64,000 nucleotides of DNA. It comes from Vermamoeba vermiformis. Taxonomy: Eukaryota. Positions 6,485 through 63,058 of this stretch are shown here, one piece after another. Under the pieces are notes generated by a model that was given only the letters and a program-made list of their open reading frames with translations, searched no databases and had not been told where the DNA came from. The DNA lies in contig JBEWZL010000008.1 in NCBI GenBank assembly GCA_045837725.1, positions 1 to 64,000 of the forward strand. The letters run 5' to 3'. How positions within the stretch are numbered: position 1 is the stretch's first letter; the number at the start of each line of letters is the position of its first letter. Both the position numbers and the translations under genes were made by a program.

Positions 6485-8456
6485 AGGTCGTGGTCGAGGT
6501 CGTGGTCGAGGTCGTGGTCGTGGTGGTAGTCGTGGAGGCACACATCCAGATCGTGCAAGATCTCAGGAGGACGATCAGAGACAATCAGCGAACAGGCGTG
6601 CGGAGCGCTCGTCAGAGGGCGATGATTTGGAGCAAGAATCCTCTGAGGATAAAGGCTCGCAGCGGGGCTCACCATCAAAAAGATCTCGCCCTTCAAAAAA
6701 TCAACGCGAGAAATCGAAGCAATCGAGCGTTGAAGTTGACCCTGACGCAACGCAAATAGTGACCTCACAGCCAAGCACTCGGCTGTTAGAAGTGCATGAC
6801 GGTGATGAAGAAAGTACCGATGCGCAGAATCGCATCGAGGACCAAGTGGAACTTGAGATTGACGCGGTAAGTTTCTTAGTTTCTATAATATAGATAATCT
6901 AACGGCTTGTAATAGAGTGTACCTTCAAACACAAATGTTCAGGACTCGGCAGCAGAAGCGCCCCACGAAAACGACGGTCAGGTATCGACAAAACGTAACC
7001 ACAAAAAGTTGGTAGCTAATATTTGAGCTAATAGGAAATTGAAAGAGAATCCCCAGCCGTTACCGAAAGTGCGGTACATAACCAACAAGAATCAGGACAG
7101 TCTTCTGATTCTTCACAAAAACCCCTATCTGAGGGACATGGAGATGTCTCTTCTCTGGATAATGAAGCAGGCTCTGGTGCGGAAGTTGGAACAGAAGCGC
7201 AGGATAGTCAGGTAAGCAAATAGTAGCTACGGGCAGCCCATAGCTAATATTTGGCACAGGCAAATGACGGAGGCCAGTTCGAACCTGCTTCTTCTTTGGA
7301 GATTGAAAGCGCTCAAAGACCCAGAGCCGAGCCAAACCAAAACCAGATTATTGACACCCCTGTAGTGAACGAGCCAAGCCAAAACCAGAGCGTTGATGCC
7401 CCTGTAGTGAACGCAAGCAGTCAAGCTGTGCAGGGGGTGGGAAAGGGAGACAAAGCGCCTGCTAGAAAAGTAAGTCGATTCATACAGCAATGCAGCTGTG
7501 CTAACTTTGGTGTTGAAAGAGAAAGCGTGTCATTAATGACGAAAATCTCTATGACTCAGAGAGTGATGGTAGAAGATCCTCAGCCAAGCAAAACAAGCGA
7601 CGAAAACAAGTAGGCAAAGTTAGTGAGGATGACTACCCAACGGGCAAAAAGCCAACGTCGAAAAAAAGGAAGGCCACCAAGAACAATACTAATGAGAAGC
7701 CTGCAAAAAAGGTGGGTAGCATTATAAAAACTGAATATTTCTAACGCATTCATATTTAGAGAAAGGTTAATAAAGAAAGCTCGTCATCGGAATCAGAGGA
7801 GGATCCACCCCCAATTAACTTCTCTGTTCGAAAAGCCAAGGTCTATAACCGCCCACAAACTGCTCCCTTTCAAGAGGTAGTAGAAAGAATTATGGCGAAG
7901 GACAACGTTGCTCAAGCTGAAGCTGAAGCTGAAGCCAAAAAGGCCCTGAAAAAGTTTCACGAACAACTGAGTAAGTTTTAAGTTTAAAGTTGATGTTAGC
8001 TTACAATTTTGGTGTTTAGCAATGAAGGAGATGAATATTTACAAAAACACAGAGGGTGTGTTTTTATCAAAACGCCGCTTTGCATTGATAGTCAGGGACA
8101 TCACTTACAACGCTGCAGATGAGGAGTATAGGTGGCAAAGAGGAGCCTTGGATGCATTGCAATATGCTTCTGAGGGTTTTATTTCCGATCTTTTTACTAT
8201 GGCACAGCTCGCCACCATTCATGCCCGTCGTGAAACGGTCATGGTTCGAGATATGCAATTAGTATATGAAGTGCACAATGTCGCTTCTGATGCTGTTTTG
8301 CATAACTTGAAGCATAGCCTTCAAGACTCTGCAAAAAAAGATGGAATTAAGCTTTCTACTAAGCCTGCTTCCACTGCAAAGTCAAAGCCAAAGTCCAAGT
8401 ACAGTAAAAAGGAGCTTAGAGAGCTTGTTCTTAAAGAGAAACAAGCAAAGAAATAA
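6329..8456 (+). CDS. Giant histone H3-fold protein, CenH3/CENP-A-like (>=609 aa; start codon not located)
   Basis: In-frame exons 6329-6866, 6916-6981, 7035-7211, 7260-7469, 7520-7711, 7760-7970 and 8020-8456, all with GT-AG introns. The last exon aligns to the H3 fold (MKEMNIYKNTEGVFLSKRRFALIVRDI...RWQRGALDALQYASEGFISDLF...IHARRETVMVRDMQL). (GR)n tract at ~6443-6540. Confidence 0.85.
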
Positions 8457-8559
8457 GATTTTATTTTTGAATGAATTTATTTAATAAATGTGGTTTTGTC
8501 TGATTTGGGTTGTGAGCTGTTTATCAAGTTTTTGTTGGTTTTGCCAAGCTGGTTCACAC

Positions 8560-8828
8560 CATACGAATTTCGGATGCCTATACTACCTTGGTTATTTCAG
8601 AGAACAACCCTTTCAGACCATCCGATTTTCGGACGCTCTCAAAAGCAGCTACGAAAATGTAATAGCCAATATTCAGATGTGCAAGGCATCCGAACTTAGG
8701 ATGGTCTGAAAGTGCTGTGAAATCTCTTATAAGCCTATTGAAGACCATCCGAAGTTCGGATGCCCATGTGGAAGAATATCAGCTATGAAAGTTACATAGC
8801 TGCTTTTTGACCATCCGAAGTTCGGATG
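8560..8828. repeat. Array of five 17-nt palindromes CATCCGAA-N-TTCGGATG (59-68 nt period) with nested inverted repeats
   Basis: Motifs at 8560, 8619, 8687 (inverted context), 8746 and 8812. TTTCAGACCATCC/GGATGGTCTGAAA and AAAAGCAGCTA/TAGCTGCTTTT form longer inverted pairs. Confidence 0.85.
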
Positions 8829-9033
8829 GCTGTGGGAGACGCTTTGACAAAGAATAAACTCATTTATTTTACATCATACAAGCAGGGACTCTTCACCCCT
8901 CAACCTTTAACCTTAACCCCAAAGGTATATTAATTCAGCAGAAGTCTAGGATATATCACACACCAATTCAATTTTGAAGCCATGAGTAAGAGCAACCCTG
9001 GCTGTTTTATTTACAAAACAGTAGTAAAGATTT

Positions 9034-11288
9034 TCAGCTAATGATACATCCTGCTCTCTTCTTGGGCTTAGTTTGCTTTGTGGGTTTTGCAGGCCTATTA
9101 TCATCTTCCAAAAAGAGCAAATATTCAGTGCATTTGAGTTGCAGGTAATCTGAATTAGCTGCTTCTCCAAATTGTAAAAGCTCTTGTACAAACTGAATGT
9201 CCATGGTTGGACTCTTTCTGCCACCCTTGGATAGATGCATCTTGTCTGCCATAGCTCTGCACAAGTAGTGCATGAAAGATTGCAAAGCAAATTTGTCAGC
9301 AAACCTCAATAACTTCAAAACACATTCAACTACACGCGAATCTCCATTTTCCACAAGTGCAATTGAGTCAGTATAAATAAACTCCAGTAATAGTAGAGCT
9401 GATTGGAGGTCCAAATCTGCTACATTAATGTCTTTTGTTGCTCCATTATCAGTCCATAAAGTTAACAGTTCTGGAACACGTGCTTGCAAGACGAGCTACA
9501 GAAAGATTGAGTTAGCAGTATCCACAACTATTTTTAAACTTGTTGCTTACTGAATGGGCGTGTAGGATGGACTGCCCAACCTGAATTTTCAAATCTGCAT
9601 GGAGTACATTGTTTATCAAGCCCTTGCATGTCTCTACCAAATTGGAACTGAAAGGAGTTTAGTGAATTATGATATTTGTGCATAACTTACCCTGCCTCCG
9701 TGAGTATTGAAGAAAGAATTGAAGGCTCGCTTTTGCTAATTGCACTTTTGATCTCCGTGGCAAATGTTGATAACGGCTTTGTTGGGTAATAAATAAACAG
9801 ATTGCGCTCAGGGTCTACAATCGCATTGCTTAGCTTCTTTGTAGAATTTTCTAGGTCGAGTTAGAATTTACGCGTCATAACGAGTCAAATATTACCTGAA
9901 AGAATCAACGTTTGCAAGATGTACGGAATGATCATTTTCATTGCCTGCTTATCAACCAAGTCGCCACACACGGCAAAGAACGGCTTGGCAGGGTTACGAA
10001 ACTCGCAAAACTTCTCGACAAAGTAGAGCACAATCGAGCGTGCATCAATGTCACCTGACAGTGTCAGCAACAGATGTACGTAGTCATCTCGCTTACCATT
10101 GTAATCACTCGGCAAATACTTTTTGATGTCAGCGCCACTTTTGATTGCATCCTCGAGGATATTAATGCGCGATATAAAGAGGATGACTGGCGTTTCGGTT
10201 AAAAATTTTGAATTGCTCACATCGCGGTAGAGCGCGAAAGCAGACTGACGATCATCGACGTAGCCGGTGGACTGTTCAACCAGAAAACTATAAACGATGA
10301 TGATGAGAGAAAGTGTGCCTTAGATTGTCATTGACAACGTACGTGTCGGCTGGTACAAACAACAACATCGCTGAAACTGCGTCAAATGCGTGTATCCACT
10401 TCTTGCGTTCGTTTCGCCGACCTCCAATAAGTACAGCTCTGAACACCATTAGTGCCGCAATATCGCACCATAGAACTTACTTGACACTCGAATTGCCATA
10501 CGAGTGTTGATCTTCAACGATTCCAGTCAAGGACATTGACAAATCCCCGACATCGTCCGGGGTTAAATCGCGCTTTGAATTGAGCACCTCGCTCGCCAAG
10601 GGAATAAACCTTGTGACCAGTCAAACTATGCGTCGAGTTAGCAATGAGTTTGCAAAATCTTACGTCTTCAACCAGTGCTTGGCGCGCAACACTTCAGGGT
10701 CCCACACAGCGTTGAAATCGCTTTGAAACTCTTCAGTCTCCCACAGCTGCACGATGTCTTTCATTGCGATGGCAGGGACCTTACGACAAAATTAGCGTCG
10801 TTGCGGAAACAAGGGACTTGCATCATTTTCCGCAGAGTACCGCACAAGACGTTGGGCTAAATTATCTGCTCGTTCTCTAATCTTTGAAGTGTCAATCGTG
10901 ATTTGAATATAGGCAAAGCTTACTTCAGCATTTTTCGAAACTTCTGCGTACTGTTGTAGAGACCAGCGTATCGAACTAATTAATAAATTCCAATAGAATG
11001 AGGGCTCATGTTCTTCTTGCTTATCAAAATACGAGTTGAGTTGTTTTCGGAAGTTGTTCGGCAAAGTTCTATCCAAACCTATTTTAATATTTAAAGTTAA
11101 GTATTCCTATAAGCTCGAATGACTCGTCTCGTTAAAATAACGCGATTAGAGGAGCTAATTTAATTATAATTAATTTGAAAAATTCTGATTTATTTCTGGG
11201 TCCACACCGAGTCTCACAGAATAACAGTGCTACGACACTTACCGTTAACTAAAATTTTGAAATCCGCTTCGTTGTTGTTTAAAGCCAT
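9034..11288 (-). CDS. Degenerate G-protein alpha domain fused to a BTB/POZ domain, C-terminal CaaX (CIIS)
   Basis: Spliced model: MALNNNEADFKILVNG-LDRTLPNNFRKQL ... SLTGIVE ... LIGGRRNERKKWIHAFDAV ... ETPVILFISRIN. In-frame exons then give HADLKIQVGQSILHAHSLVLQARVP...LLEFIYTD...LLRFADKFAL (BTB), ending KKRAGCIIS. Confidence 0.8.
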
Positions 11289-11439
11289 TCTAAACCGCAA
11301 TCCTGGTTTTATACACGGCGCTGTGGTGTTTGTTGCAAAACGGGAAGATTTTAACAATTCAAAAATAGTTTAGTTGTCAATTGCAATTCTAGTAGTTTGA
11401 ACTGAATTTATTACAAGTTATTAACTTATTATACAAGTA

Positions 11440-13758
11440 TTAGGTCTTAAAAATCTTCACCGTTTTGACAACAGGTCCGCGGCAGATCGGGCACGTTTTC
11501 AGCATCTGCGCGCAACTCTCGCAGAATCCTAAATGACCGCAATCCAGTAGAGCAGTGGTGCGAAGGTGGTCTTTTTCTTGGCATATAATACATAGCTCTT
11601 CGTCCAGATCTGCTTCGTCGCGGATGTTGATCTTCTTTTCCTCCTCGACGTTGTTGATTATTGTTGTTCGCTAGTCGCTTAGGAGGTGCATGCAGTACTT
11701 GAAGAAGATTGTCCGCACCGTGTTCAAATGCCTTGCTGAGCTCGAGCACCTGTTGCACGAAGAACTGACCTTCAGAACTCAACAGACCGAGCAGTGTGTC
11801 CAGCTTGGTCAAGTCAGGTCGTGCGCCGTCGAGTTTGAACTGCAAGATGTCAAAGCCCATGTTCTCGAGGGCAGTCACCATGCGGCCTTTGCGTCCAGGG
11901 TTATCGAGGAACGAGACGAATACGAGCTTGGCAGGGTAGACCTCTTGGTAGTACTTCTGAAACATGGACGGGAAGTAGTCCGTGCCGTTGAACTTCTCGT
12001 TCTCAACCTCGTCCGTAACCACGATGAAGAACTTGATCTTCTTGCGCTGTTGGTAGTACGGCCACAACGCACAGGCCGAAGCAGTTAATCCATCAGCTTT
12101 CATTTCTGTGGCCACACGCACGACTTCAGGAATTGTCTTCGGGTTGAGTGGCGGATCTACTAGTCGCACGTTGAAGAATTTGAGCTCCGCAGAGGTGAGC
12201 ACTGTCAACACTGAGGCAATAATGGTGGAGGTTCGAATAGCCACGTCCATGGAATAGCTAGCATCACCCAACACGACCACTGGTGGTTCTAGCTCGAGGC
12301 TGATTTTGTTCAATTTCTCTTCGGCCAGAGGGATCAACAGCTCGTAGAACGGCGCGTCGATCTTTTTGAAGTACAACAATCGTTCCATCAACTTGCCGTA
12401 GGTCAAATTCAGCTTCTCGTCTTTTGATTCGAGTCGCTGTTTGATAATTTGATTGACTTGAGGGTGATTCAACTCCTCGTGGTACCACATCAGTGTTTCG
12501 AGGGGCGTGTATTTCGCGATCAAGGGCTTAGCTTCGTGCGGCAAAGGCTTGATATGAACTCGCAAGTACGAGTAAGGGATTTGCAGTGCTTTGAACTCGA
12601 TGTTGTCCATTTTGAATCGACCAGAGAGCACGTCGACCAAGTTGTCTGAGCTCAAATACTGTGCTACGGGCAAGGAACTGTCGCGTGGAGGTTCAGCGCC
12701 GTAGACGAAAGACAAGAACCACGGCACGGCAAAGTCTTCTGGACTCAAGTGCACGAGATCGGACAATTGCTTCCACGGTTCCTGCACAGACACGTCAGAA
12801 TGATTATATAAAATAAAACAAAATCTTTGGTTTGGAAATATTTTTTGGTGACGTGGCACTGATAGTCAAAGACTTACCTTGGGCATGTGCAATGCAAAGT
12901 ACTCCAAGTCCTGCGCGGGAATTGTGCGCACCCATTGCTTGATTCGTTTGGCCAACGAGCCGCTCAAGCCCTTGTCCAACAACATTTCACGCTGCAAATC
13001 ATTTTCTTGCGCCTTCAAAGTGTTTAATGTCGTTCTCTTCGCCGTGCCTTGTTTCTCCAATCGTGCAACACGTTTTTGCAGTGCTTTGACACGTCGTTTA
13101 GCGTCCAACAGTTCGAGGCCGCGCAGCACCTCGACCAAACTGAACTGTGTCTTGTATTCGTTCAATATCTTGTCCACGATGGTGTACCACTGCTTGGACC
13201 AGCAAGTCGCGAGGAACTTTGGTCTGCCTCCTTTGGCCAGTTCAATGCCTTGGCGCAGCAGTGTGAGTGCTGTGGCCACGTAGATCGGACCGCTCTTTGT
13301 CGCGAAATCAACGTGTTCTGCGAGACTGCTCTCGGCAACAAATAATTTTTTCATCGCTTGCACGTGATTGAATTCTTCATTGCCTTCAATGTGGTCTGGC
13401 TTAACTGCGGGACGTGGTTTTTGGTTCTGGATGTGCTCACAATATTAATCTCACGTAATACAAATTTTTAATGCACTTACACTTTTATGTTTTCCGGGGT
13501 AATCAGCTGGAATGCCGTCGGGGTTCTTTATTTAAGATATTTAGAAATTTAAATATTCAAAAAAATTCAATTAGCCACGAAATAAATACCTGATTCGGAT
13601 TATAAGCTTGCTGACCCTCTTGAGCAGTAAGAAATTGTATAGCTGCATTTACATCACCGTCGCAAATCAATAAGACGGATTCCAAAACATCGCGATCGAT
13701 ATTATTGCCTTGGAAGTGGCGTTGCAGCTGGTTAATCTTCGCTGTATTATCACCCATT
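11440..13758 (-). CDS. CUE/UBA-like, helical, vWA (MIDAS) and C-terminal C3HC4 RING protein
   Basis: N-terminal INQLQRHF..IDRDVLESVL...DGDVNAAIQFL; VVVLGDASYSM and FFIVVTDE (vWA); terminal exon CIICQE...DCGHLGFCESCAQMLKTCPICR. Confidence 0.75.
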
Positions 13759-26575: not shown

Positions 26576-29481
26576 ATGAAACACTTGTTCCCATTAACAG
26601 TGCTATGCCTGCTAGCAGTAGTGCGCGCAAGTAAGTTCTTTTATACAATGCATTGTCTTGCTTGTAGTGATGAGGATACGCAAGATTACGCAATCGCTCC
26701 GTTATTAACGTCGATTCCAGATTTACAACAAGAAGACTATCTTATTCAAGGCTACGGTTCTCCCTACTCCACTACACTATACTCTGAATGGTATGTATTA
26801 CAAACTGAAATATACGCAAGTTTAGGAAAAAAGTGTCAGATTTCGCGTTGACAGTTGGAAATCATCCAGCTTTTAATTCCCCGTGATGGCGCAAATAATA
26901 ATTCCTTGTCTTTAGGATTTTGAGTTACACGCAGTATTCACCTACAGCACGCATTTCATTTGATGGAATTGGAACGGTCGCTGGGTTTACAAAGTTTGTT
27001 CGCGGCGAGGCTGACTTCGCAGACTTGGCCTTGATGACGAAAGAGATCATAGAGGTAAGTCTAGTTTCAAACGTATTTTGATTACTTAACCCAATCAACG
27101 CGACCTGTCAGTTCGTCATCCATCGAAAAGGCCTTTTCGTCTTTACACAAAATTTTTTCTTATCCTGCGTAAATAATATCTTTATAATCACCATTGGTCA
27201 TATTGATCATAAATATATTTTGGTATGCGCTCATAACCAGACGCTTTGGCCCCAAAAATTACTAAATATGGCAAAGGTGATTTAGCAATCAACCGTACTC
27301 GTCCTGTCTCATGTTAATAACTTAATTAATTAATAATATGTTTATGCAAATAGACTCCGGGCTACTTTGTTATGCCCAGCGCGGTTCACTCCACCGCATT
27401 CACGTACTCGATCCCCGGTTTCAACGCAACCTTGACTCTTGGCCGCACTACACTCGTCGACATATTTCTCGGCAAAATAGTGCAGTGGAATGATCCTAGA
27501 ATTCTAGCGGACAACCCTCTCATCGCGCCAAGCCTGTTTACCAACAACACGATCACACTCGTGGCACGCGGTTCTCCGTCCATTGATAACTTGATCATCA
27601 ACGCCGTGTTTTCTAAAGTATCGCAAGAGTGGGCAGATCTGGCTAACCAAACTATTGGTGGATTTCTTCCCACGCCGGTCTACGCCTTGCCGCACGTCCA
27701 CACTGCTGTGGGCAATGACGACCTTTTGGGCATTACGCACGACTCCTCGCTTGGTTATGCGCCGTGGTCTATTGTACGAGCATTTAGCCAGCCTACTATG
27801 TAAGTATTCTAATTTCATGATCAAAACTAGATCTTGGTGTTGTGGTTCATTAACCTAAATTTTGTGATTTGATTTCACTGCTTTTGCACCGCAATTTTTA
27901 ACCAGATTCTTCAGTGCCATTATCAACCAAGCTGGTGCTGAAGTGGGTCCTGAAGCGGTCAGTGCCACAGAAACAATTCTCGAAGAGATATTCGATGACT
28001 TATTGTGAGTAATAAGGTGATATCATTGATATGACTCTAACGAAAATGACAGAACGGATGTCGCCGATCTGGACATTCCTGAAGCCTACCCATTCATGGG
28101 CATGAGTTACGGCCTCTTCCGTGGCAACATGGTCAATGTCTCCAACGAGTTGTGCAACAGGACTACGGTGTTGTATCGCTTCTTGCGCTGGACTCAGATG
28201 ATGAAGTACGCCGAAAACGCAGCCGAACACTGGGGCTTTGGATCCTTGCCGCAAAATATTCGCAACCGCACTAGATTCGCCTTGGAGAGTGCTACTTGCA
28301 ATGGCGAGCTCATTTTGCAATGTAAGTGTCAAACTAGATATCTTTCCCTAATTTGGAATATCCATGTATACTTGTGCGCAAATTTCTTAAATGAATCAAT
28401 TGATAGCACATTTCTGACATACTGCTTGTAGATAACTTAACGCGTGCTATTCCCACTAGTCAGCCCGGAAGAATCTTTCTCATCGCTTTCGCTGCCACCG
28501 GAATTGTCGCCTGCATGGGTCTTGCGATTGCCTTTTATGTCCTCGCTGGTATTAACTCGGAGCGTATCCCCCGCGAAGAACTCATCTTCACCTTCCTCAT
28601 CATTGCTGGTGCTATCATGACTTTCACTTCAGTATTCATGTGGCAACGTGACCCGTCCGTTGATTCAACTTGTCAGGCACGAATCTGGTTGATGGTGTTT
28701 GGCTTGTACACGTTGCTCTCTGCAATCTTCACGCGCACTTGGCACTTGCACCGCATTTACAACCAAATGTATCGCTTGCAAAAGTTGTCAGTGCGCGTCA
28801 AAGGTGTGACTGAAGTGCTGGCCGGCACAGCTGTCGTGTTAGTGCTCACCACTGTAAGTTTCGTCGAACATCCCTCAGTGGCCATGCGCATTAACGAATG
28901 ATATCTCGCAGGTGTTCTTAGTCGTATGGACGTTAGTTGACCCCTACAGAACGGCCATCAGAATCTTCAACGAGGTCGAAATGGTCGGCGAATACATGTG
29001 CACCAGCGATAACTTCGTCGCTTGGATAGTAGTCTTCGCCGGCATCATTGTGGCCATGCTCATTTGGGGCATTTTTGTTGTGTACCGTGCCTGGGCCATC
29101 AAAGACAAGGCCAATGAAGTGCGCTGGTTGTTGCTCGGCGGTTACAACTTCTTCCTCACGCTTGTCGCTGTCATTCCCATTCTCCTCGCCGTGCCTCAGA
29201 CGGACGAAACCACTTTCTATGTGATTGGCACCGCTCTCAACTTCATCACTGCCTCAATTGTGATTGCCATCTTCGTGCCCAAGCTCTCCAATCAGGCGCG
29301 CATTCGTTCATCGCGCTCAGGTTCATCGCAACGCTCTCAACGTGCCACTTCAACCAAACAAGAAGGCAGCACCCTTCACATCAACAGCAAGCGCGATCAA
29401 GAACCAGTGCCCAGCATGCCCGTCGACTCCATGCCTCAAGACGATGATCAATCAACGTCAACTTCTGAGAAAGATCAATAA
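26576..29481 (+). CDS. PstS-like periplasmic-binding domain fused to a class C (GABA-B-like) GPCR 7TM
   Basis: Signal peptide; IQGYGS...GIGTVAG...ADFA, DIFLGKIVQWNDPRI, SLGY and AYP (PstS-like). 7TM region with CQARIW, IFTRTWHLHRIY, LVVWTLVDP, NEVRW and IFVPKL. Confidence 0.8.
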
Positions 29482-38148: not shown

Positions 38149-41100
38149 ATGAATTGGAGGCCGATAGCTGGGTTCGCAGTTGGTAAATACTGAGATAACG
38201 GTGAATAAAATTAGTCTAATATTTTGCAGCGGTATTCGACTTCAATCCGCAAGGCGAATATCAAATCGCACTGAAGCTTGGTGATTTGGTTGAGTTACAC
38301 GAGGAATATGTCGATGGAACCTGGCTCAAAGGAACGGTTCTCTCGGAGAGCCGTAACGAAGGCATTTTTCCAAAGGATTTCGTAAAGATGCGCCCTGATT
38401 ATGACGATTTAATTAGCGAATTAAGCATTGTAATTAAAGAATGGAGTGGATTGATGAAATCCTATTTGAAGGTAAAAATACGAATTTTTATTATGAATTA
38501 ATTTTCAAATCTGAACTTGCAACAGGAGAAAAAACGCTATGAATTTCTTCAGGTGAAGCATAAATTGGAGATGCTTTTGACGTACCATCAGAAATTATTA
38601 TTACCCCCGACGAAATACGCAAAAACAATCGGTGGCATTGATCCTTCAGCGGTACTCCGTAACGAGCTACGCAGTGTAGTGCTCGCTAAAATAGAGGAAG
38701 GACGAAGACAATTGGGACAAGATTTGATCGTTAAAACAGACGACGGTGATATCGCTAATGAGGGCAACACTCCCACCATGCAACTGTACAAAAAGGCAAG
38801 TCTACAATAATACTCGAGATTAGTCGCCGTTATTAACAGCATATATAGCACTCGAATATGCAACACGGCCAGCGACTGCGAAGAAAATCTACCAAAAGCA
38901 GCCACAACGAATTACGAAGTTTGGTACGCGTGTCAAATCTTGCACTGCTCAGTGAACTAACCGACGTCAATAGCGCACTGTATTTTCGAAGAAATCCGGC
39001 GCAGAGAGCAACATTGTCAACGAAGCATCGCCGCTATTGGACGTTGCCGTGATGAAACATTTGTGCCTCGATATGAAGGTCTTGTTGTGCCCGATCAACA
39101 GCGACTCTGAAATGTTGTTCTACTTGTACAACAAAACTACCAACGAGGTGATCACTGAAACGTACAACGTAGATCTCAATGCCTCGGGTGTCAGTGCCAA
39201 CTTGGACAAGCTGTTGGCGGAAATCACGATCTTTAAGGTGCGTAATTACTACCTATTCTTAATGAGCTTACAAATGACTAACATGACACAGGATTTGACG
39301 CCTAAAGAACCATTGCTTGACATTTATTTAGTCTGTGAAATCTATCGTATCGGCAAATTGGTCGCAGATAAAGAAAGTATCATCGTGCAACAGTCAAAGA
39401 AAGACGGCAAGAAAAAGGGCTCGGCAATGTATCGCAGACCTTTTGCAATCGGTGCGTTGCATCTTCAACAAAGCAGTTTAAAGCCTGGTAAAGAAGTTGA
39501 ATACACAATTCCGTTGTTCAGTGTCCGCGAAGAAACACAGTTCCACATGGCTCGCGAATGTAAGTGCTGCGTGAACTTCGCTCAATATTAATTCATTGTG
39601 GGTAGTGGCGATAAAAGATCTTGGTGGCCTCGATCCCATTCCTCGCGCTGACGGTGTGCGCGTTGGTCTGAATTTGGTGGTCGGAGATCTTAAACAAGCC
39701 CTGGGCAAAGTACCTCAATGCATCACCCCGCGCATTAATCGCGTGGCCTATCCCGGCAGTGACTTTGACCAACCTCGCAATGATCTCTACGTGACATTTG
39801 TATCGGGTGATTTTCTTGCCTCGTTGAAGTCTCCGCGCGTCAAACTCTACGTCAGATCCTGGAACCCAAAGACGCAAGAACTGAAGGCTCAGCCAGCAAT
39901 TTGGCGTGGCACAGGCCAAGAAAAACCATCCGAAGAATATCAGTGCTACGTGATTCTACGCTGCGATAAACCAACTTGGAATAACACGGTCAAAATTCAA
40001 ATTCCCGCTGCACAGTACCCGAACTGTCACTTGTTCTTTACAATCAGCGAGGCCAAAGATGGCGAGGAGAGTAAGTTCAGCAATGATATTCGGGTCAGAT
40101 CTGATGTTGTGCCCACAGAAAAGGACAAGGAAGCTACGATGATGGCGTACCTGGGCTTGACCGATGCAGAAGGTGCGATCCTTACCGACAACACACACAC
40201 CTTGACGTGCTTCAAACCTGCAAAGGGTGTCGATTCAAAAAAGGAGCCTTCGTTTTACATTCCATGTAAGAGTTCACTATCCACTAATTAAGTGCATTCT
40301 AACATGAGCATCACAGCCAAAAACAAGGTCGTTGCGAGAAAAGAAACACTCAAAATCAGAACACAACTCATTTCCAATCAGATTTCTCAGAATGGTATGA
40401 CTTGCTTTGCGTTTAAATTCTCTAACACATGCTACAGGTTGGTTGTATAAGCTGATTACTTGGAGCAATATGGACCCTGCTGTGCTTCCCGAAGTGATGA
40501 ACCGCATCACCTTTGTTGACGCTTACGAGATTTCACGGGTAAGTTGCCGATATTTGTTCCCTAAATTCACGAATTAACACCGCACAGTTTATGAAAGAAA
40601 CATTGGACGCCATCTTTGCATTGCTCGACTCAAAGATGACTCACTTGCACGATGCAGTGTAAGTGCACATTTCCATCTCAACGACCAAATACTGATTGTT
40701 TACAGCTTCAACGTTCTCGTGTTTGTGATTGGTATTTTGACGGACGAAAAGAAAACCAAAGTTATACCAGCCTCACGAATCGCTTTGGACAAATATCTTG
40801 AGACCGACTTCGCGGTGATTGGTCAATTCACGCACAAACATTTGATCAAGTGCCTGCAAAGTTACTTTACACTCTACGAATCCAAGCCCGTGTCTGAGCT
40901 GAACTCGGTGCTGAAAGCCTTGGAATACGTGTTAAAGTTTACACTCAAGTCACGAGCGCTGTTCAAATCAAAGAGTCAAATCAAAGACGACGTCGAATTC
41001 AAGAAGCTGATTGTTGATTGGCTCGACAAGCTTTACGTGATGATGGAAAATCCCAAACCAGCGTTCTTAGGCCCGCAGACCATTGCCATTCAAGCCATCA

Positions 41101-43884
41101 GTTCATCGTTCAACACACTTTACGCCGTATTCTCTGCGCAAGAAATGGCCACAATCGCAATGTCATTCCTCGGCAAGATCAAGTACTACGAGGACAAGAA
41201 GCTCTTGAACATTCAAAAACTGTTGTTCCTTCATGCCTTGGCATCCAGCGACTTGTTCAAATTTGTTGATGTGCGCAACATGTTGTTGCCCGGTGTGATC
41301 AAACAACTCCGCCTGCACATCAACAGCCGCATCGTCGAAGAGCGCAACGAAAGTGTCAAAGTGCTGCAGCGCCTGTTGGAGACAGTCGAACTGCAACGGT
41401 GGAATGGACTGGACCACGGCAACGTGGCAGAGTTCATGCAAGTCATTCCTGATCTGCAGCACTTGCTGTTGAACAACAAGTTTGACACCAGCGGCACAGA
41501 CAACGAGGAAAAAGATCTGCACAACGTCCTCATCGTCCTGTTCGCGATCTATCACTTGATGGAGCCTGAGCAGTTTGACGAGTTAATCGGCAAAATGCCG
41601 GTTGGACAACAAGCGACGTACATTACAAACACTTTGAAGTTGTTGGGTGGCATTGTCGCGCAAGAGTTGCCTTCATTCCCCGAGAACTGGTTCTCACTGA
41701 TTATGTTCCAAAATTCAGTCGTGCTGAAAGTGTTCATTCTCTTGGGACACAGCGTGGAACAACGTGTCTCTCGCATTGACGAAGAGCTGGAGATGTGGTC
41801 CAATTACTTCAAGGCCAATCTCTCATTCGTTAACTGCGCCACATTGAACCTCGAATCATTCCCTGAAGCCAAGAGAAAGATGATCTTTTCTCGCTACGCA
41901 GATATGCGACGAGATGCACTCGATGTGTTGGAAGTGATTTGGAACGGACTGGGCGTGCATCAATTCAAATTCGTCGAGCAGATGGTCGTGCCTATCATCG
42001 AACTGATGCTTGTAAGTACTAAACCAAGTGTGTGCCCTCACAGTAACTAATCTGCAATTGTAGTCCGAGCAGAAAGAGATGAAGATGAAAGGCAATTCAC
42101 TGTACTTGTCGCTGATGATGACTGAATTCAGCAACAGCAAGACAAAGAGCGTCGAAACAACTGCTCGCATTACAACAGGCGTGTTGAGTCAGCTGTTTGA
42201 CAAGTTGCTTCAAGCCTGTCCCGAGCCACAAAGTTTCTTTTTGCAAGCTCTCGGGCCTGATCTTCAAGCAGCTATTGCACAAACACCCGCTTTTGGACCA
42301 ATTAGCAGTGCATTCTTGCAGGACATGCAGACAATAATCGTGTTGTTGCGCGACAGCAATAGTTATCCATTCGACGACATTTGGATGGACGAAGTTGTGG
42401 CTGCACATCTGCGCCTGATTGGTTATTTGGCTAAGACCAATCGTTGGAAGACGTGGTCGCATCATTTGCACCAACTGTTCAAGACTCACTTGGCCACAAA
42501 CAACTTGACCGAAGCAGCGAACACGTTGTTGTTGCACGCAGACAAGATCAATTGGAATGACCAAAAGATGCACGACCCCGTGGGCTCGTTCCCGCGTCAG
42601 ACTGGTGCTGACAGAAAAGAGTCGTTGTTGCGCCAGGCCATTGATCTGTTCAATCAAGCCAAGATGTGGGAGTGTGCGCTGCCACACATTACTGAATTGC
42701 TCAACAAATTCGCGAATGATCCGATGAAAGTCAAAGAGCTGCGCGAGCTTGAAACACTGTTCCAGCAGAACATCTCAACTTCATCGCGATTTTTCAACGA
42801 ATATTTCTACGTCGGATACTTTGGCAAAGGATTTCACCCGAGCATCAGAGTAAGCTTATCTATCAGTATTGTGTATTAGTACTTACATTGGCATTAGAAC
42901 AAGGAGTTCGTCTATCGAGGCAACGAGTTTGCGCGCTTGGATGACTTCACCTCGCGCATTCAAGCCAAGTTCCCCGACGCCAAGATATTGACCTACACCA
43001 ATTATCCTCCCGCTGAAGTGATCAACTCTCCTGCAAAACACTTGCAAATATTTGCTGTCAAACCACGTGCTGAAGAGCCCTATGCCACGCCTCCAAGCCC
43101 GCGTGCGATCTTAGATGGGCAGAGCAATCAAGCGCAGTACAAATTCTTCCAAAGCAATCGCGTGAAGAACTTTGTGTACTCGAAGAGTGGCCGCCGAAAC
43201 AAACAGAAAGAAGAACAGCCCGAGGACGAAGTTGCAGACACGTGGATCACCAACACCGTCTACACCACGGCTCAACAATTCCCGCACTTGCAACGCCGCA
43301 TTGAAATTGTGAAAAAGACACTCGAAGAGAGCACGCCCATTCAAGTGGCCATCAATCAAGTCATCATGCGCAGCACGGATGTCGCACAGATTGTGTTGAA
43401 GCACAAGGGCGGCAGCACAGACAATTTGGTCAACTTTACGATGGTGTTGCAGGGCACTATCAATCCGACGGTCAATCAGGGCACCAAACTCTTCAAAAAG
43501 GCATTCTTGTCCGACAAATACGCTGCTGAGAACCCCGACAAAGCGGAACAAATTCAACGATTGCGCGAGACTATCATTGAACAGGTGGAGATCTTGGGCG
43601 AGGCCTTGACAGTGCACGCTGGATTCTGCTCGCCCGAAATGGCCATCATGCAAGAAGAACTCGAGCGCAACATGGCACAACTGCGACAAGAGTGGGGATT
43701 GCCGCCCTTGCCTGGCTCAGAGAACTTGCTCAACACTGCTGGTGACGCGGGCAACGACTCGATTGTTTCACGCGGCAACACGTTGTCCAAATTCAAACTC
43801 TCGTCCAAGGCACTCACGCCTGGTGTCACCAAATCCCCGCTGCCCGTCAGAAAACCGTCAGTTTTCAAGCCTAACCCGAAATAA
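38149..43884 (+). CDS. DOCK-family Rac GEF (SH3, DHR-1/C2, armadillo, DHR-2)
   Basis: N-terminal SH3 (AVFDF...WLKG...GIFPKDFV), YRRPFAIG, PRNDLYVT, TEAANTLLLHA, YFYVGYFGKGF and LQGTINPTVNQG. Confidence 0.92.
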
Positions 43885-56708: not shown

Positions 56709-58221
56709 ATGGCTTCAAATGTACAGCAAGGGAGCAATCCCGCTTCAAATCCAATGACACTCAGCAATGACGTTCTTCACCTAGCAATAGCAAATAAATT
56801 AATTCGTTATTTATTAACAAAAGGTAATTAGGTTTAAACACCCGTGGCATTGGGTAACTTGAATTCAGAAATTTAGTTTGAAATGTAAAATAAAATATTA
56901 TTATTTACTAGGCCAGCACACGGAAGGATTATTTTTAACTCCCGCAAATGAAGGCGAGGTGAATCAAATGCGAAGAAAAATTAAACAAGGTAGAGTAATT
57001 AATCGAATGATGCACAAGTTGTAACCCTTTGTTGTAGACCGCGAGGCGATTGATATCAGTGCGCACACTAAAAATCCCCACGTCATTGCCGAGTTGTTGA
57101 TAGAAGTGTTGTCGACGTGGGTGTCGCAGCCCCTGCTCACGTACGCACTCTACGACAGCTTCATATTGACCGCCGACTTCACGCGGCTGAACGATCGATT
57201 GACCGCGCAGAGTCAGCTCTGTGACACCTTGCCCTCGTACTTCAAAGCGACTGTCAAACAGTGTCTCGCACTCCTGTTGAAAGTCACTGAGAATGCGCCC
57301 TTGACACGTGTCACTCTCGACAAACTAGCGCCAATCTTTGCACCAATTTTATTACGACCCAAAAAAGTCGAGCCTTATATGGCAGAACAAGATGAGCAGA
57401 AAGTCAAGCGGCTATTTTTAGAAGTGGTAGGCTATCATGAAGTCATTATTCCGCAACAAGTGCCAGGTGAAACTGCGCCGCGCAGTCCGCTGTTGGAGAA
57501 CGAAGAGCAGATCCAATACGAATCTCCGCGCGTGATTGACATGGGGGCACTGAACACCATTCGGCGCTACAAATCAGCAGCCAAGCAGTACTTTGAGTTC
57601 ATCGTCAAGCCCAATCCCTCGTGGCACGAACTCTCTGACAGTCCTGCAGTCGCGCGTGAGGACGACAAGACGAATGAACAACAAAAATCTCGCGTGCCGG
57701 AGATTTCCATCAAACGTCCGACAGTGCCCGAGAGCGAGTCAAATGTCACCAACGAAGCACCGCGCTTGGACGAGTCACTGCTCGAAGAAGACAAGCTGTT
57801 GAATGCCTCGCAGGACGTTGAAGTGTCACGTGATGCGGAACAACGCGCGCCAGTGACAGCAGTGAATGACGACAGCAACGACGAGATCTTCGTGCAAGAT
57901 GAAGAGGTGATAGTCAGTGAAGAGAAGCCAGTGGAACATCACGCGCACGCCGAGCTGATTGCAGACAGCATTGACCGCATCACCAAGTTTGTGTCTGAAG
58001 AGCAGCACAAGGAGAAACAACACGCCCTCAACAGTCTCAGCGGCTCTGAAGTCGAAGAGAATACTGAGAATACTAATGACAATAGCACTACGGATGCTGA
58101 TCCAAATATGGCGAGCAACAATAACAATGATGTTAATAAGAACAATGAAGCTAGTGTCCCGTCGACTGAGAGTGCTCATGACGCAACAGTCACGGATGAG
58201 AACAACAATAATGCGATGTGA
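56709..58221 (+). CDS. RhoGAP-like domain protein with acidic low-complexity C-terminus
   Basis: TEGLF, NPHVIAELL, QPLLTYALYDSF and LAPIFAPILLRP segments follow the RhoGAP pattern. Confidence 0.7.
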
Positions 58222-62164: not shown

Positions 62165-63058
62165 ATGAGCGCACAGAACTCGCTGGTATTTAAATATGTG
62201 ATTGTAGGACCTACTGGTGTGGGCAAGTCCTCGCTCATGCTTCAATTCACTGGTACGTGGTGCACTGGAGCCAATACGAGAATACAGCAACCAATTAATT
62301 GCTATTAATTGTACCATATATTAAGACGTCCATATTTCCCAGAGTGCAATACTTGCAGCACATATTGAATTAATTGGTATTAATTGAAAGATTCTATTAG
62401 AGCACGTCTTCCAGCCCTCGCACGAATTGACCATTGGCGTTGAATTCGGATCATTCTTTACGAGCATCAGTGGCAGAGATGTACGGCATTCAGTCCGCTA
62501 GGTGTGGATCGAGAATCTGACATTTCCATTGCAGGTCAAACTTCAAATCTGGGACACAGCAGGTCAAGAATCATTCAGGTACCACTGCGCCAGTATATCC
62601 CCGCTATTATTACTCACCTTGCACGCAGATCCATCACGCGCAGCTACTACCACGGAGCACACGGCGTGCTGCTAGTGTACGACATTACACGGCGCGAGAC
62701 CTTTCAGTACATGAGCTCGTGGCTCGAGGAGTGTCGCCAACAAGCGGATGGTGCGCTGACCGTGGTGCTGATCGGCAACAAGCGCGACTGCGAGGACGAG
62801 CGACAGGTCAGCGAGGAGGAGGGCCAGCTGTTTGCGCGCGAGCACGGCCTGTTGTTCATGGAGGCCAGTGCCAAGACCGCGCTCAATGTCGAGGCTGCAT
62901 TCTTGCAGTCCGCGCAGCAGATCTACGACAAGTGGCAGCGCGGTGAGGTGGTGCTGTCAGATCCGGGCAACAAGATCAAGCTCGGCACGCAGCAGGGCAC
63001 GAGTGGCACCAACAACAACACGAATGGTGCGCCGAGTGAGCGCAAGTGTCAGTGTTGA
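62165..63058 (+). CDS. Rab2-like GTPase
   Basis: FKYVIVGPTGVGKS, HELTIGVEFG, WDTAGQESFRSITRSYY, GNKRD and EASAKT motifs; ends CQC. Confidence 0.92.

Follow-up and report, generated by a model that had tools for sequence, protein, structure and literature searches.

A G-alpha fold with degenerate nucleotide motifs joined to a BTB domain and a prenylation signal in a single spliced gene of Vermamoeba vermiformis

Structure of the gene and its transcript

The window analysed here comprises the first 64,000 nucleotides (nt) of contig JBEWZL010000008.1 (forward strand, GenBank assembly GCA_045837725.1) of Vermamoeba vermiformis. Between positions 11288 and 9034, on the minus strand, it contains one gene of 11 exons and 10 introns, which was defined by a splice model together with sequence contigs and specifies a protein of 556 amino acids. 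In this protein, a G-alpha fold is followed by a linker of about 55 residues, a BTB domain extended by a 3-box hairpin, a polybasic stretch, and the C-terminal residues CIIS. The open chain starts with an ATG at 11288 and ends, 556 codons later, with a stop codon at 9036-9034. It is colinear with P0001, a JGI 'hypothetical protein' of 557 amino acids encoded on a 1802-nt contig. The two proteins are 62% identical from end to end, with values of 59% for the G-alpha part, 53% for the linker, 68% for BTB and 3-box, and 73% for the tail.

A first splice model predicted 570 amino acids and nine introns, all with GT..AG borders except for one with GC..AG. Apart from one intron of 164 nt, the introns are short (42-55 nt), and with their CTAAC-like branch sites they gave, by eye, a fungus-like impression. 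Contigs from X1 and X3, public runs that belong to two studies, were then compared with positions 8900-11400. Their coverage is confined to approximately 9054-11335, and the depth falls to zero within intron 1 and on either side of the gene in the intergenic flanks. Since only exons are covered, the contigs are read as transcripts. They also revealed a tenth intron of 42 nt, in frame at 10096-10055, the removal of which shortens the protein from 570 to 556 amino acids. An earlier interpretation made from the letters alone (the sequence-only reading) had linked the exons properly, but had overlooked this intron.

The linkage of the two domains depends on the 45-nt intron at 9851-9895. In each of the runs X1 and X3, one contig lacks this intron and joins 9850 to 9896; the skipped stretch has CT..AC borders on the plus strand, corresponding to GT..AG on the gene strand, and the shorter side of the joint extends over 157 letters. 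One X3 contig of 431 nt (record 7) runs through 9562-9647, 9691-9850 and 9896-10052, connecting the first BTB exon via the linker to the last G-alpha exon. If the intron were retained, the frame would stop after three codons at 9887-9885. The natural end of the G-alpha fold lies a few residues ahead of this stop, as expected if a short G-alpha gene and a separate BTB gene were present, and a rare intron-retaining form would be compatible with the contigs. However, no in-frame ATG was found on the minus strand between the 9885 stop and the BTB core, so that a separate BTB protein would have no start codon. Moreover, P0001 reads straight through the junction of G-alpha and linker, the conserved linker belongs to a frame that stays open over 11 exons, and the BTB domain itself spans the border of exons 9 and 10, which further supports splicing. 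The in-frame fusion put forward in the sequence-only reading is therefore borne out by contigs of two studies. Transcripts ending at the 9885 stop, named there in advance as the finding that would speak for two genes, were not encountered in the X1 and X3 contigs. The locus is a single gene with a single spliced mRNA.

Besides the fusion joint, eight of the nine other introns are supported by X1 or X3 contigs at or near the predicted borders. Joints within 2 nt of the prediction were obtained for introns 1, 2, 4, 6, and 8 and for the new intron in exon 7. They are less clean for intron 9 and in the region of exons 3 and 4, and for intron 5 only loose ends matching the neighbouring exon are present.

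Exon 1 (11243-11288; all features on the minus strand) contains, in the splice model, the start codon and strand beta-1, without an alpha-N helix or an N-terminal Gly/Cys lipid site. Intron 1 (11079-11242, 164 nt, GT..AG; X1 joint from 11076 to 11241, cut +2) separates it from exon 2 (10924-11078; X3 joint from 10881 to 10924), in which the remnant of the P-loop, helix alpha-1, and the start of the helical domain are found. The degenerate P-loop GLDRTLPN, aligned under the canonical G.G.SGKS(T), lies at 11056-11078, with the first base of its Gly codon at 11243. The helical domain continues in exon 3 (10822-10881), whose 3' border is fixed only to within about one codon, and in exon 4 (10664-10779; X1 joint from 10607 to 10662, cut +2). 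Intron 3 between them (10780-10821) has GC..AG borders in the model; X3 joins 10779 to 10821 with two extra letters, X1 is divergent, with 39 letters replacing 75, and the part of the helical domain encoded here differs from P0001 by an insertion/deletion of two residues. Switch I (SMSLTGIVE, 10539-10513) is located in exon 5 (10481-10609), for which loose ends of X1 at 10442 and 10481 are in accord with the following splice. Switch II (LIGGRRNERKKWIHAF, 10431-10384) is located in exon 6 (10343-10438; X1 joint from 10287 to 10343).

Exon 7 is divided by the new intron (10055-10096, GT..AG; joint from 10052 to 10095, cut +2, in X1 and X3), and P0001 is without the corresponding 14 residues. Exon 7a (10097-10287) has FISRIN (10178-10161) replacing the canonical LNKxD, as judged from alignment and Pfam, and exon 7b (9896-10054) encodes the G5 remnant VCGDLVDK and helix alpha-5, where the G-alpha fold ends (Pfam match to profile position 332 of 333). 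Beyond the fusion intron (GT..AG), the linker is encoded by exon 8 (9691-9850; X3 joint from 9647 to 9691), again without an in-frame ATG, and the N-terminal helix and first strands of the BTB domain by exon 9 (9551-9647) of the model; in P0001, the match to BTB profile positions 3-98 extends over exons 9 and 10. The first part of exon 10 (9088-9495) specifies the remainder of the BTB domain with the loop LWTDNG (9459-9442) and the two-helix 3-box hairpin, according to Pfam and fold searches. It is followed at 9037-9087 by the polybasic stretch KPTKQTKPKKRAG and the CaaX box CIIS (9048-9037).

One X1 contig shows an additional in-frame skip of 102 nt (GT..AG) at 10119-10220, inside exon 7a, which would delete 34 residues including the FISRIN strand. 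The same stretch is unspliced in another X1 contig, and the skip may represent a minor isoform or an assembly artefact.

The contigs derive from related strains and differ from the window in a small number of codons, nine synonymous and nine non-synonymous in X1, and five and four, respectively, in X3. With so few changes, these differences hint only weakly at constraint. The stronger argument for a functional gene is the identity to P0001 across an uninterrupted frame of 11 exons.

Domains and signals of the protein

The window exons were scanned singly with Pfam as eight translations; the domain scores for full-length proteins are those of P0001. Two of the eight translations match the G-alpha profile, exon 7 with E 7.1e-11 and exon 6 with E 1.7e-6 (42.3 and 27.9 bits, respectively), one matches BTB as described below, and the remaining five gave no match. 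In P0001, residues 9-316 reach 93.7 bits with the G-alpha profile (PF00503) against a cut-off of 48.8, covering profile positions 20-332 of 333. The fold was modelled on P0001, not on the window protein. An AlphaFold model based on an alignment of 147 rows has block means of the predicted local distance difference test (pLDDT) of 75-96 for residues 11-320, and shows Ras-like strands with a six-helix domain between beta-1 and switch I. All 45 Foldseek matches among those listed for this model are G-alpha structures, with target-normalised TM-scores (TMt) of 0.64-0.80 over about 325 columns.

Within this fold, the nucleotide motifs are degenerate. In an alignment of the window protein and P0001 with seven canonical G-alphas, the G1 motif or P-loop, canonically G.G.SGKS(T), is GLDRTLPN in the window protein and GTPRNLAS in P0001. 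In switch I, the canonical Arg finger is replaced by Ser and Pro, respectively, while Thr-Gly-Ile-x-Glu is kept. The G3 motif DVGGQR has become LIGGRR in both proteins, G4 (NKxD) reads SRIN and SRIH, and G5 (TCATD) reads VCGDL and ICGNL. Thus, the P-loop Gly, Lys and Ser/Thr, the switch-I Arg, the Asp and Gln of DxxGQ, NKxD, and the Thr and Ala of G5 are lost in both full-length proteins. Of 56 alignment columns with a conservation of 80% or more among 135 canonical G-alpha rows, 23 are kept in both proteins, four in one of them, and 29 are lost in both. The losses are unevenly distributed: in the P-loop stretch, three of 12 conserved columns are kept in both proteins, in switch II ten of 13, the missing ones being the Asp, the Val following it, and the catalytic Gln. 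Switch II and the Thr-Gly-Ile-x-Glu of switch I are the faces used by canonical G-alphas for G-beta, RGS proteins, and effectors.

FISRI followed by Asn or His is common to P0001 and the relatives P0004 and P0005, and the fragments P0004, P0005, and P0008 display FISRIN together with the same G5 remnant. Since the degenerate motifs are also present in fragments of relatives, their loss is old within the family. Judged from these alignments, the G-alpha part has lost the residues with which canonical G-alphas bind and hydrolyse GTP. The sequence-only reading had described a recognisable G-alpha fold in which every nucleotide motif is broken and the switch-II surface is preserved; this description stands on all three points, and the peptides quoted in it, including GLDRTLPN, SMSLTGIVE, FISRIN, PVILF, and CIIS, are all in place in the minus-strand translation.

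At the N-terminus, 10-11 residues precede beta-1, compared to about 30-45 in canonical G-alphas, and neither Gly2 nor Cys3 is present. An alpha-N helix and N-terminal lipid sites are absent from the window protein and from P0001. A longer first exon is excluded by an in-frame stop upstream at 11370-11372. In canonical G-alphas, the alpha-N helix provides one of two contacts to G-beta.

The BTB domain is less conspicuous in the window protein, its last exon matching the Pfam profile with E 5.7e-4, exactly at the cut-off. Residues 382-479 of P0001 form a single BTB stretch and score 35.3 bits against a cut-off of 20.5. P0001 therefore passes the Pfam cut-offs for both G-alpha and BTB. With a profile built from four family sequences alone, the sole match to a solved chain is KLHL3 from its complex with Cullin-3 (Cul3; E 3.3e-4), and a PDB search with the BTB part as a single sequence gave no match at E <= 0.01. 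A mixed profile (A2), which detects SPOP at 1e-35, was set aside as family evidence, because three SPOP-like rows are included in it.

In the full-length AlphaFold model of P0001, residues 342-433 of the BTB region have pLDDT values below 50, and the BTB part was therefore folded separately. With a nine-row alignment, a mean pLDDT of 77.3 was obtained; in the model, the BTB core leads via a loop to a pair of long helices (residues 145-157 and 161-177 of the model). Foldseek placed SPOP at the top (E 8.7e-7, query-normalised TM-score 0.57, TMt 0.63). A second aligner, independent of Foldseek, superimposed the model on the BTB/3-box of SPOP (chain residues 183-329) with a Z-score of 13.6 and a root-mean-square deviation of 3.7 over 144 residues, followed by NPR1, KLHL22, KEAP1, A55, and KLHL3; KLHL22, KEAP1, A55, and KLHL3 have been solved with Cul3. 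Plain BTB domains reach a Z-score of about 10 over about 110 residues, and BTB structures head both fold searches. By its predicted structure, the domain is a member of the BTB-plus-3-box class, the class of known Cul3 adaptors. A two-copy complex prediction for this part (P0001 residues 362-540), run without an alignment, yielded a score of 0.01 and a mark of 0.32, values that speak neither for nor against self-association.

The tail is rich in Lys and Arg before the terminal CIIS. P0001 ends with KKPKKRAGCIVS (CIVS) and the relative P0003 with KKIKKRPGCSIC (CSIC), both preceded by a basic stretch. According to the CaaX rule, a Ser in the last position predicts farnesylation, and a CaaX box in combination with a polybasic stretch is a plasma-membrane signal as in K-Ras4B. 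The BTB domain, polybasic stretch, and CaaX box given in the sequence-only reading are thus present, and they are conserved in relatives.

Relatives and neighbouring genes

Searches of billions of proteins detected one full-length relative, P0001, and six fragments. In an exhaustive search of 1.84 billion representatives, 1425 matches were obtained at E <= 1e-3. Among the best 150 of these, six are family fragments with 54-72% identity to P0001, and all the rest, with at most 34% identity, belong to ordinary G-alphas or to BTB proteins; closest on the BTB side are multi-BTB, MATH-BTB, and BPM/SPOP-BACK proteins. When 18 of the best 150 matches were scanned with Pfam, namely the six fragments along with twelve proteins that are long or of BTB type, none contained PF00503 and BTB together. 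A word-index search of 5.8 billion proteins returned P0001 as the sole family match among proteins of similar length (7415 candidates) and among longer ones (417 candidates). Six short proteins were found at E <= 1e-10 (1237 candidates), five of which are fragments from the representative search, and the sixth, P0152, is a piece of 57 amino acids with 98% identity to P0001. A metagenome scan with P0001 gave four loci, all of them distant BTB relatives (25-33% identity) and none a family member, and a tblastn search of the 64-kilobase (kb) window with the spliced model revealed no paralogue.

No cluster with a G-alpha-BTB layout is present among Atlas clusters of at least 50 members, and a published description of this layout was not found in targeted literature searches, in which surveys of heterotrimeric GTPase systems are incompletely covered. 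In the sequence-only reading, too, no described family with this layout was known. From these searches, the family is apparently small and restricted to one lineage.

The window is eukaryotic in character, with short GT..AG introns and Pfam matches including histone, DOCK, RhoGAP, Ras, and class-C G-protein-coupled receptor (GPCR) domains. Upstream of the gene and on the same strand, a neighbour at 11440-13444 ends about 150 nt before the ATG. Its last frame has a RING-like Cys/His pattern, and its two large frames gave no Pfam match at E <= 1e-5. On the other side, at 7971-8456 (plus strand), a Lys-rich tail and a Pfam Histone match (E 3.1e-15) indicate a possible H3-like variant histone. This histone-like gene is separated by 600 nt from the 3' end of the G-alpha-BTB gene, and the interval contains, at 8558-8833, four copies of the 17-nt palindrome CATCCGAAnTTCGGATG with at most one mismatch, flanked by longer inverted repeats of 18-34 nt. 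Such copies did not occur in any of 100 shuffles, and the group could represent clustered binding sites or a small foldback element.

At a distance of 19 kb from the G-alpha-BTB gene, the seven-helix domain of a class-C GPCR (7tm_3, E 5.4e-15) is encoded at 28858-29481 (plus strand), indicating that such receptors are present in the genome. Further genes on the plus strand specify a DOCK-family exchange factor (38974-43884; DOCK_N, DOCK-C2, TPR_DOCK, DHR-2), a RhoGAP domain (57025-58221), and a Ras-family GTPase (62444-63058). The co-occurrence of the latter three may be due to chance in a gene-dense region.

Possible function of the fusion protein

Several known systems resemble the protein in part. 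RhoBTB proteins (in animals; RacA in Dictyostelium) also have an atypical GTPase fold N-terminal to BTB, and the resemblance to RhoBTB pointed out in the sequence-only reading is fair as an analogy of layout; RhoBTB clusters were also the nearest in an Atlas feature search (0.78, a lead only). Two BTB domains are present in RhoBTB proteins, whereas P0001 has one BTB stretch, and instead of a Rho, the GTPase part is formed by a G-alpha including its helical domain (PF00503). A sequence relationship to RhoBTB beyond the common domains was not found. RhoBTB3 works with CUL3/RBX1 and has a C-terminal CAAX motif (PMC3812982). With SPOP and the BTB-BACK-Kelch adaptors, the protein shares the succession of BTB and a two-helix 3-box hairpin. 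Unlike in these adaptors, a dead G-alpha takes the place of MATH or Kelch, the phi-x-E loop is two to three residues shorter (LWTDNG), a full BACK domain is absent, and a terminal prenylation signal is present.

Another degenerate G-alpha homologue without the nucleotide residues is XLG2 of plants. The part added at the N-terminus of XLG proteins is Cys-rich; BTB and CaaX, both present here, are absent from them. XLG2 is without critical residues for nucleotide binding and hydrolysis, barely binds nucleotide, binds G-beta-gamma and RGS, and has been proposed to be a decoy (10.1101/795088). The added part of XLGs precedes the G-alpha (same source), but here it follows, and the protein starts 10 residues before beta-1. 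Identity between the window protein and each of the other G-alphas found is no more than about 20-30%, which makes an origin independent of XLG likely.

Heterotrimeric G subunits are tied to Cul3 by KCTD5, a BTB protein that ubiquitinates G-beta-gamma with Cul3 according to PMC10348674 and PMC11047111; the corresponding function here is proposed by analogy. KCTD5 differs in that it is a pentamer and binds G-beta-gamma via its own C-terminal domain, not via a G-alpha fold. The BTB model described here also fits the SPOP type far better, KCTD15 being the sole KCTD chain among the matches listed (rank 50, Z-score 7.5). Finally, in ARF-BTB and ARF-F-box proteins, a GTPase from the Arf/G-alpha lineage has likewise been joined to a ubiquitin-ligase adaptor in a lineage-specific manner (PMC8358228). 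G-alpha proteins were left out of that survey, which therefore speaks neither for nor against the existence of a G-alpha-BTB layout. The protein is a new arrangement of known parts within the GTPase-BTB kind and falls outside RhoBTB, XLG, and KCTD.

Taken together, these parts suggest how the protein could act. As predicted from the sequence, a farnesylated C-terminus and the polybasic stretch would hold it at a negatively charged membrane, with the anchor at the C-terminus rather than at the N-terminus. The dead G-alpha would act as a binding module independent of nucleotide, showing a switch-II face that would be permanently 'GDP-like' or apo to a partner of real G-alphas. By analogy to XLG2, G-beta-gamma would be the first candidate for such a partner. 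BTB and 3-box would recruit a Cul3 ligase, and the captured partner would be ubiquitinated at the membrane. In function, the protein would then correspond to KCTD5/Cul3 in its action on G-beta-gamma, and its overall logic would be that of RhoBTB. Both the role as Cul3 adaptor and the capture of G-beta-gamma are inferred from these analogues, and the complete chain, from the anchored dead G-alpha capturing a G-alpha partner to Cul3-dependent ubiquitination of this partner, can only be put forward as a tentative proposal. In its more specific form, in which the nucleotide-free G-alpha would be the substrate receptor of a farnesyl-anchored Cul3 ligase that captures free G-beta-gamma, or a different partner of G-alpha, at the plasma membrane and marks it for degradation, it is rather improbable. 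If this were true, it would represent an independent invention of the role that KCTD5 has in animals and the first decoy G-alpha outside plants within the literature searched.

A number of observations weigh against this ligase proposal. The phi-x-E motif in the alpha3/beta4 loop, as defined in PMC3616122, is not preserved: in a HMMER alignment with the family-only profile, both M83 and S84 of KLHL3 lie in an insertion relative to the family, and E85 is opposite an Asn. The alignment used for the BTB model contains five SPOP-like rows out of nine and may pull the model towards the SPOP fold. The second contact to G-beta is missing together with the alpha-N helix, and the C-terminus of alpha-5 is not free, so that the usual coupling to a receptor is unlikely. 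Concerning the transcript, the kind of the runs X1 and X3 is recorded only as 'RNA? (a guess)', and the raw RNA-seq runs X17 and X18 gave no reads on the stretch, although the latter result is no test of expression.

The BTB domains of many families serve self-association only. Accordingly, the protein could be a decoy or scaffold without degradation, in which BTB only dimerises or oligomerises, no cullin takes part, and the dead G-alpha, tethered by its lipid anchor, keeps G-beta-gamma, RGS proteins, or effectors sequestered or organised at the membrane. The unpreserved phi-x-E contact, the conserved switch II, and the precedent of XLG2 as a sequestering decoy (10.1101/795088) fit this explanation. 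On the other hand, the 3-box-like hairpin after BTB aligns with SPOP 183-329, and the BACK/3-box of SPOP lifted its affinity for Cul3 from 1.0 mM to 13 nM (PMC3616122). The best relatives in structure and sequence are all Cul3 adaptors. In addition, LWTDNG at the Cul3-contact position is invariant in four of four family sequences and looks like a used surface, if not the canonical Cul3 contact; the Trp two residues earlier might substitute for phi-x-E. On balance, a purely sequestering protein appears somewhat unlikely, though it is the strongest competitor of the ligase proposal.

Alternatively, a Cul3 adaptor could have substrates outside G-protein signalling, with the dead G-alpha re-used as a binding or auto-inhibitory domain. 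RhoBTB3 and CUL3 target Cyclin E and not Rho partners (PMC3812982), and ARF-BTB and ARF-F-box fusions arose repeatedly in single lineages (PMC8358228). The loss of 29 of the 56 conserved G-alpha columns and of the alpha-N helix is also in line with unrelated substrates. The residues that have been kept, however, concentrate in switch II and in Thr-Gly-Ile-x-Glu of switch I, although part of them could serve folding only, and such substrates are considered unlikely. It is very improbable that the G-alpha part binds a nucleotide in an unusual manner, for instance ATP, and acts as a switch: RhoBTB3 is described as a Rho-related ATPase (PMC3812982) and the architecture of the nucleotide cleft is predicted with high confidence, but both full-length proteins have lost the P-loop Lys and Ser/Thr, the Asp of DxxG, and NKxD in its entirety, and no replacement phosphate-binding loop is apparent in the sequence. 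Two genes or a decaying pseudogene are hardly conceivable, and the two-gene explanation was rejected on account of the fusion joint in the contigs, the missing start codon for BTB, and the colinear P0001.

The general importance of a small family, apparently of one lineage, is limited unless its mechanism proves new. Fusions of GTPases and BTB, as in RhoBTB and some ARF proteins, indicate that cells repeatedly wire GTPase folds to Cul3 ligases. The family is also a natural experiment on G-alpha residues in the absence of nucleotide binding: switch II stays, while the contacts to phosphate, magnesium, and guanine go. In the proposed membrane-anchored ligase adaptor, the GTPase-BTB fusion, control of G-beta-gamma in the style of KCTD5 from animals, and a dead G-alpha decoy in the style of XLG2 from plants would be combined in one polypeptide, and the gene offers a testable model of a pseudo-subunit that would shut off heterotrimeric G-protein signalling.

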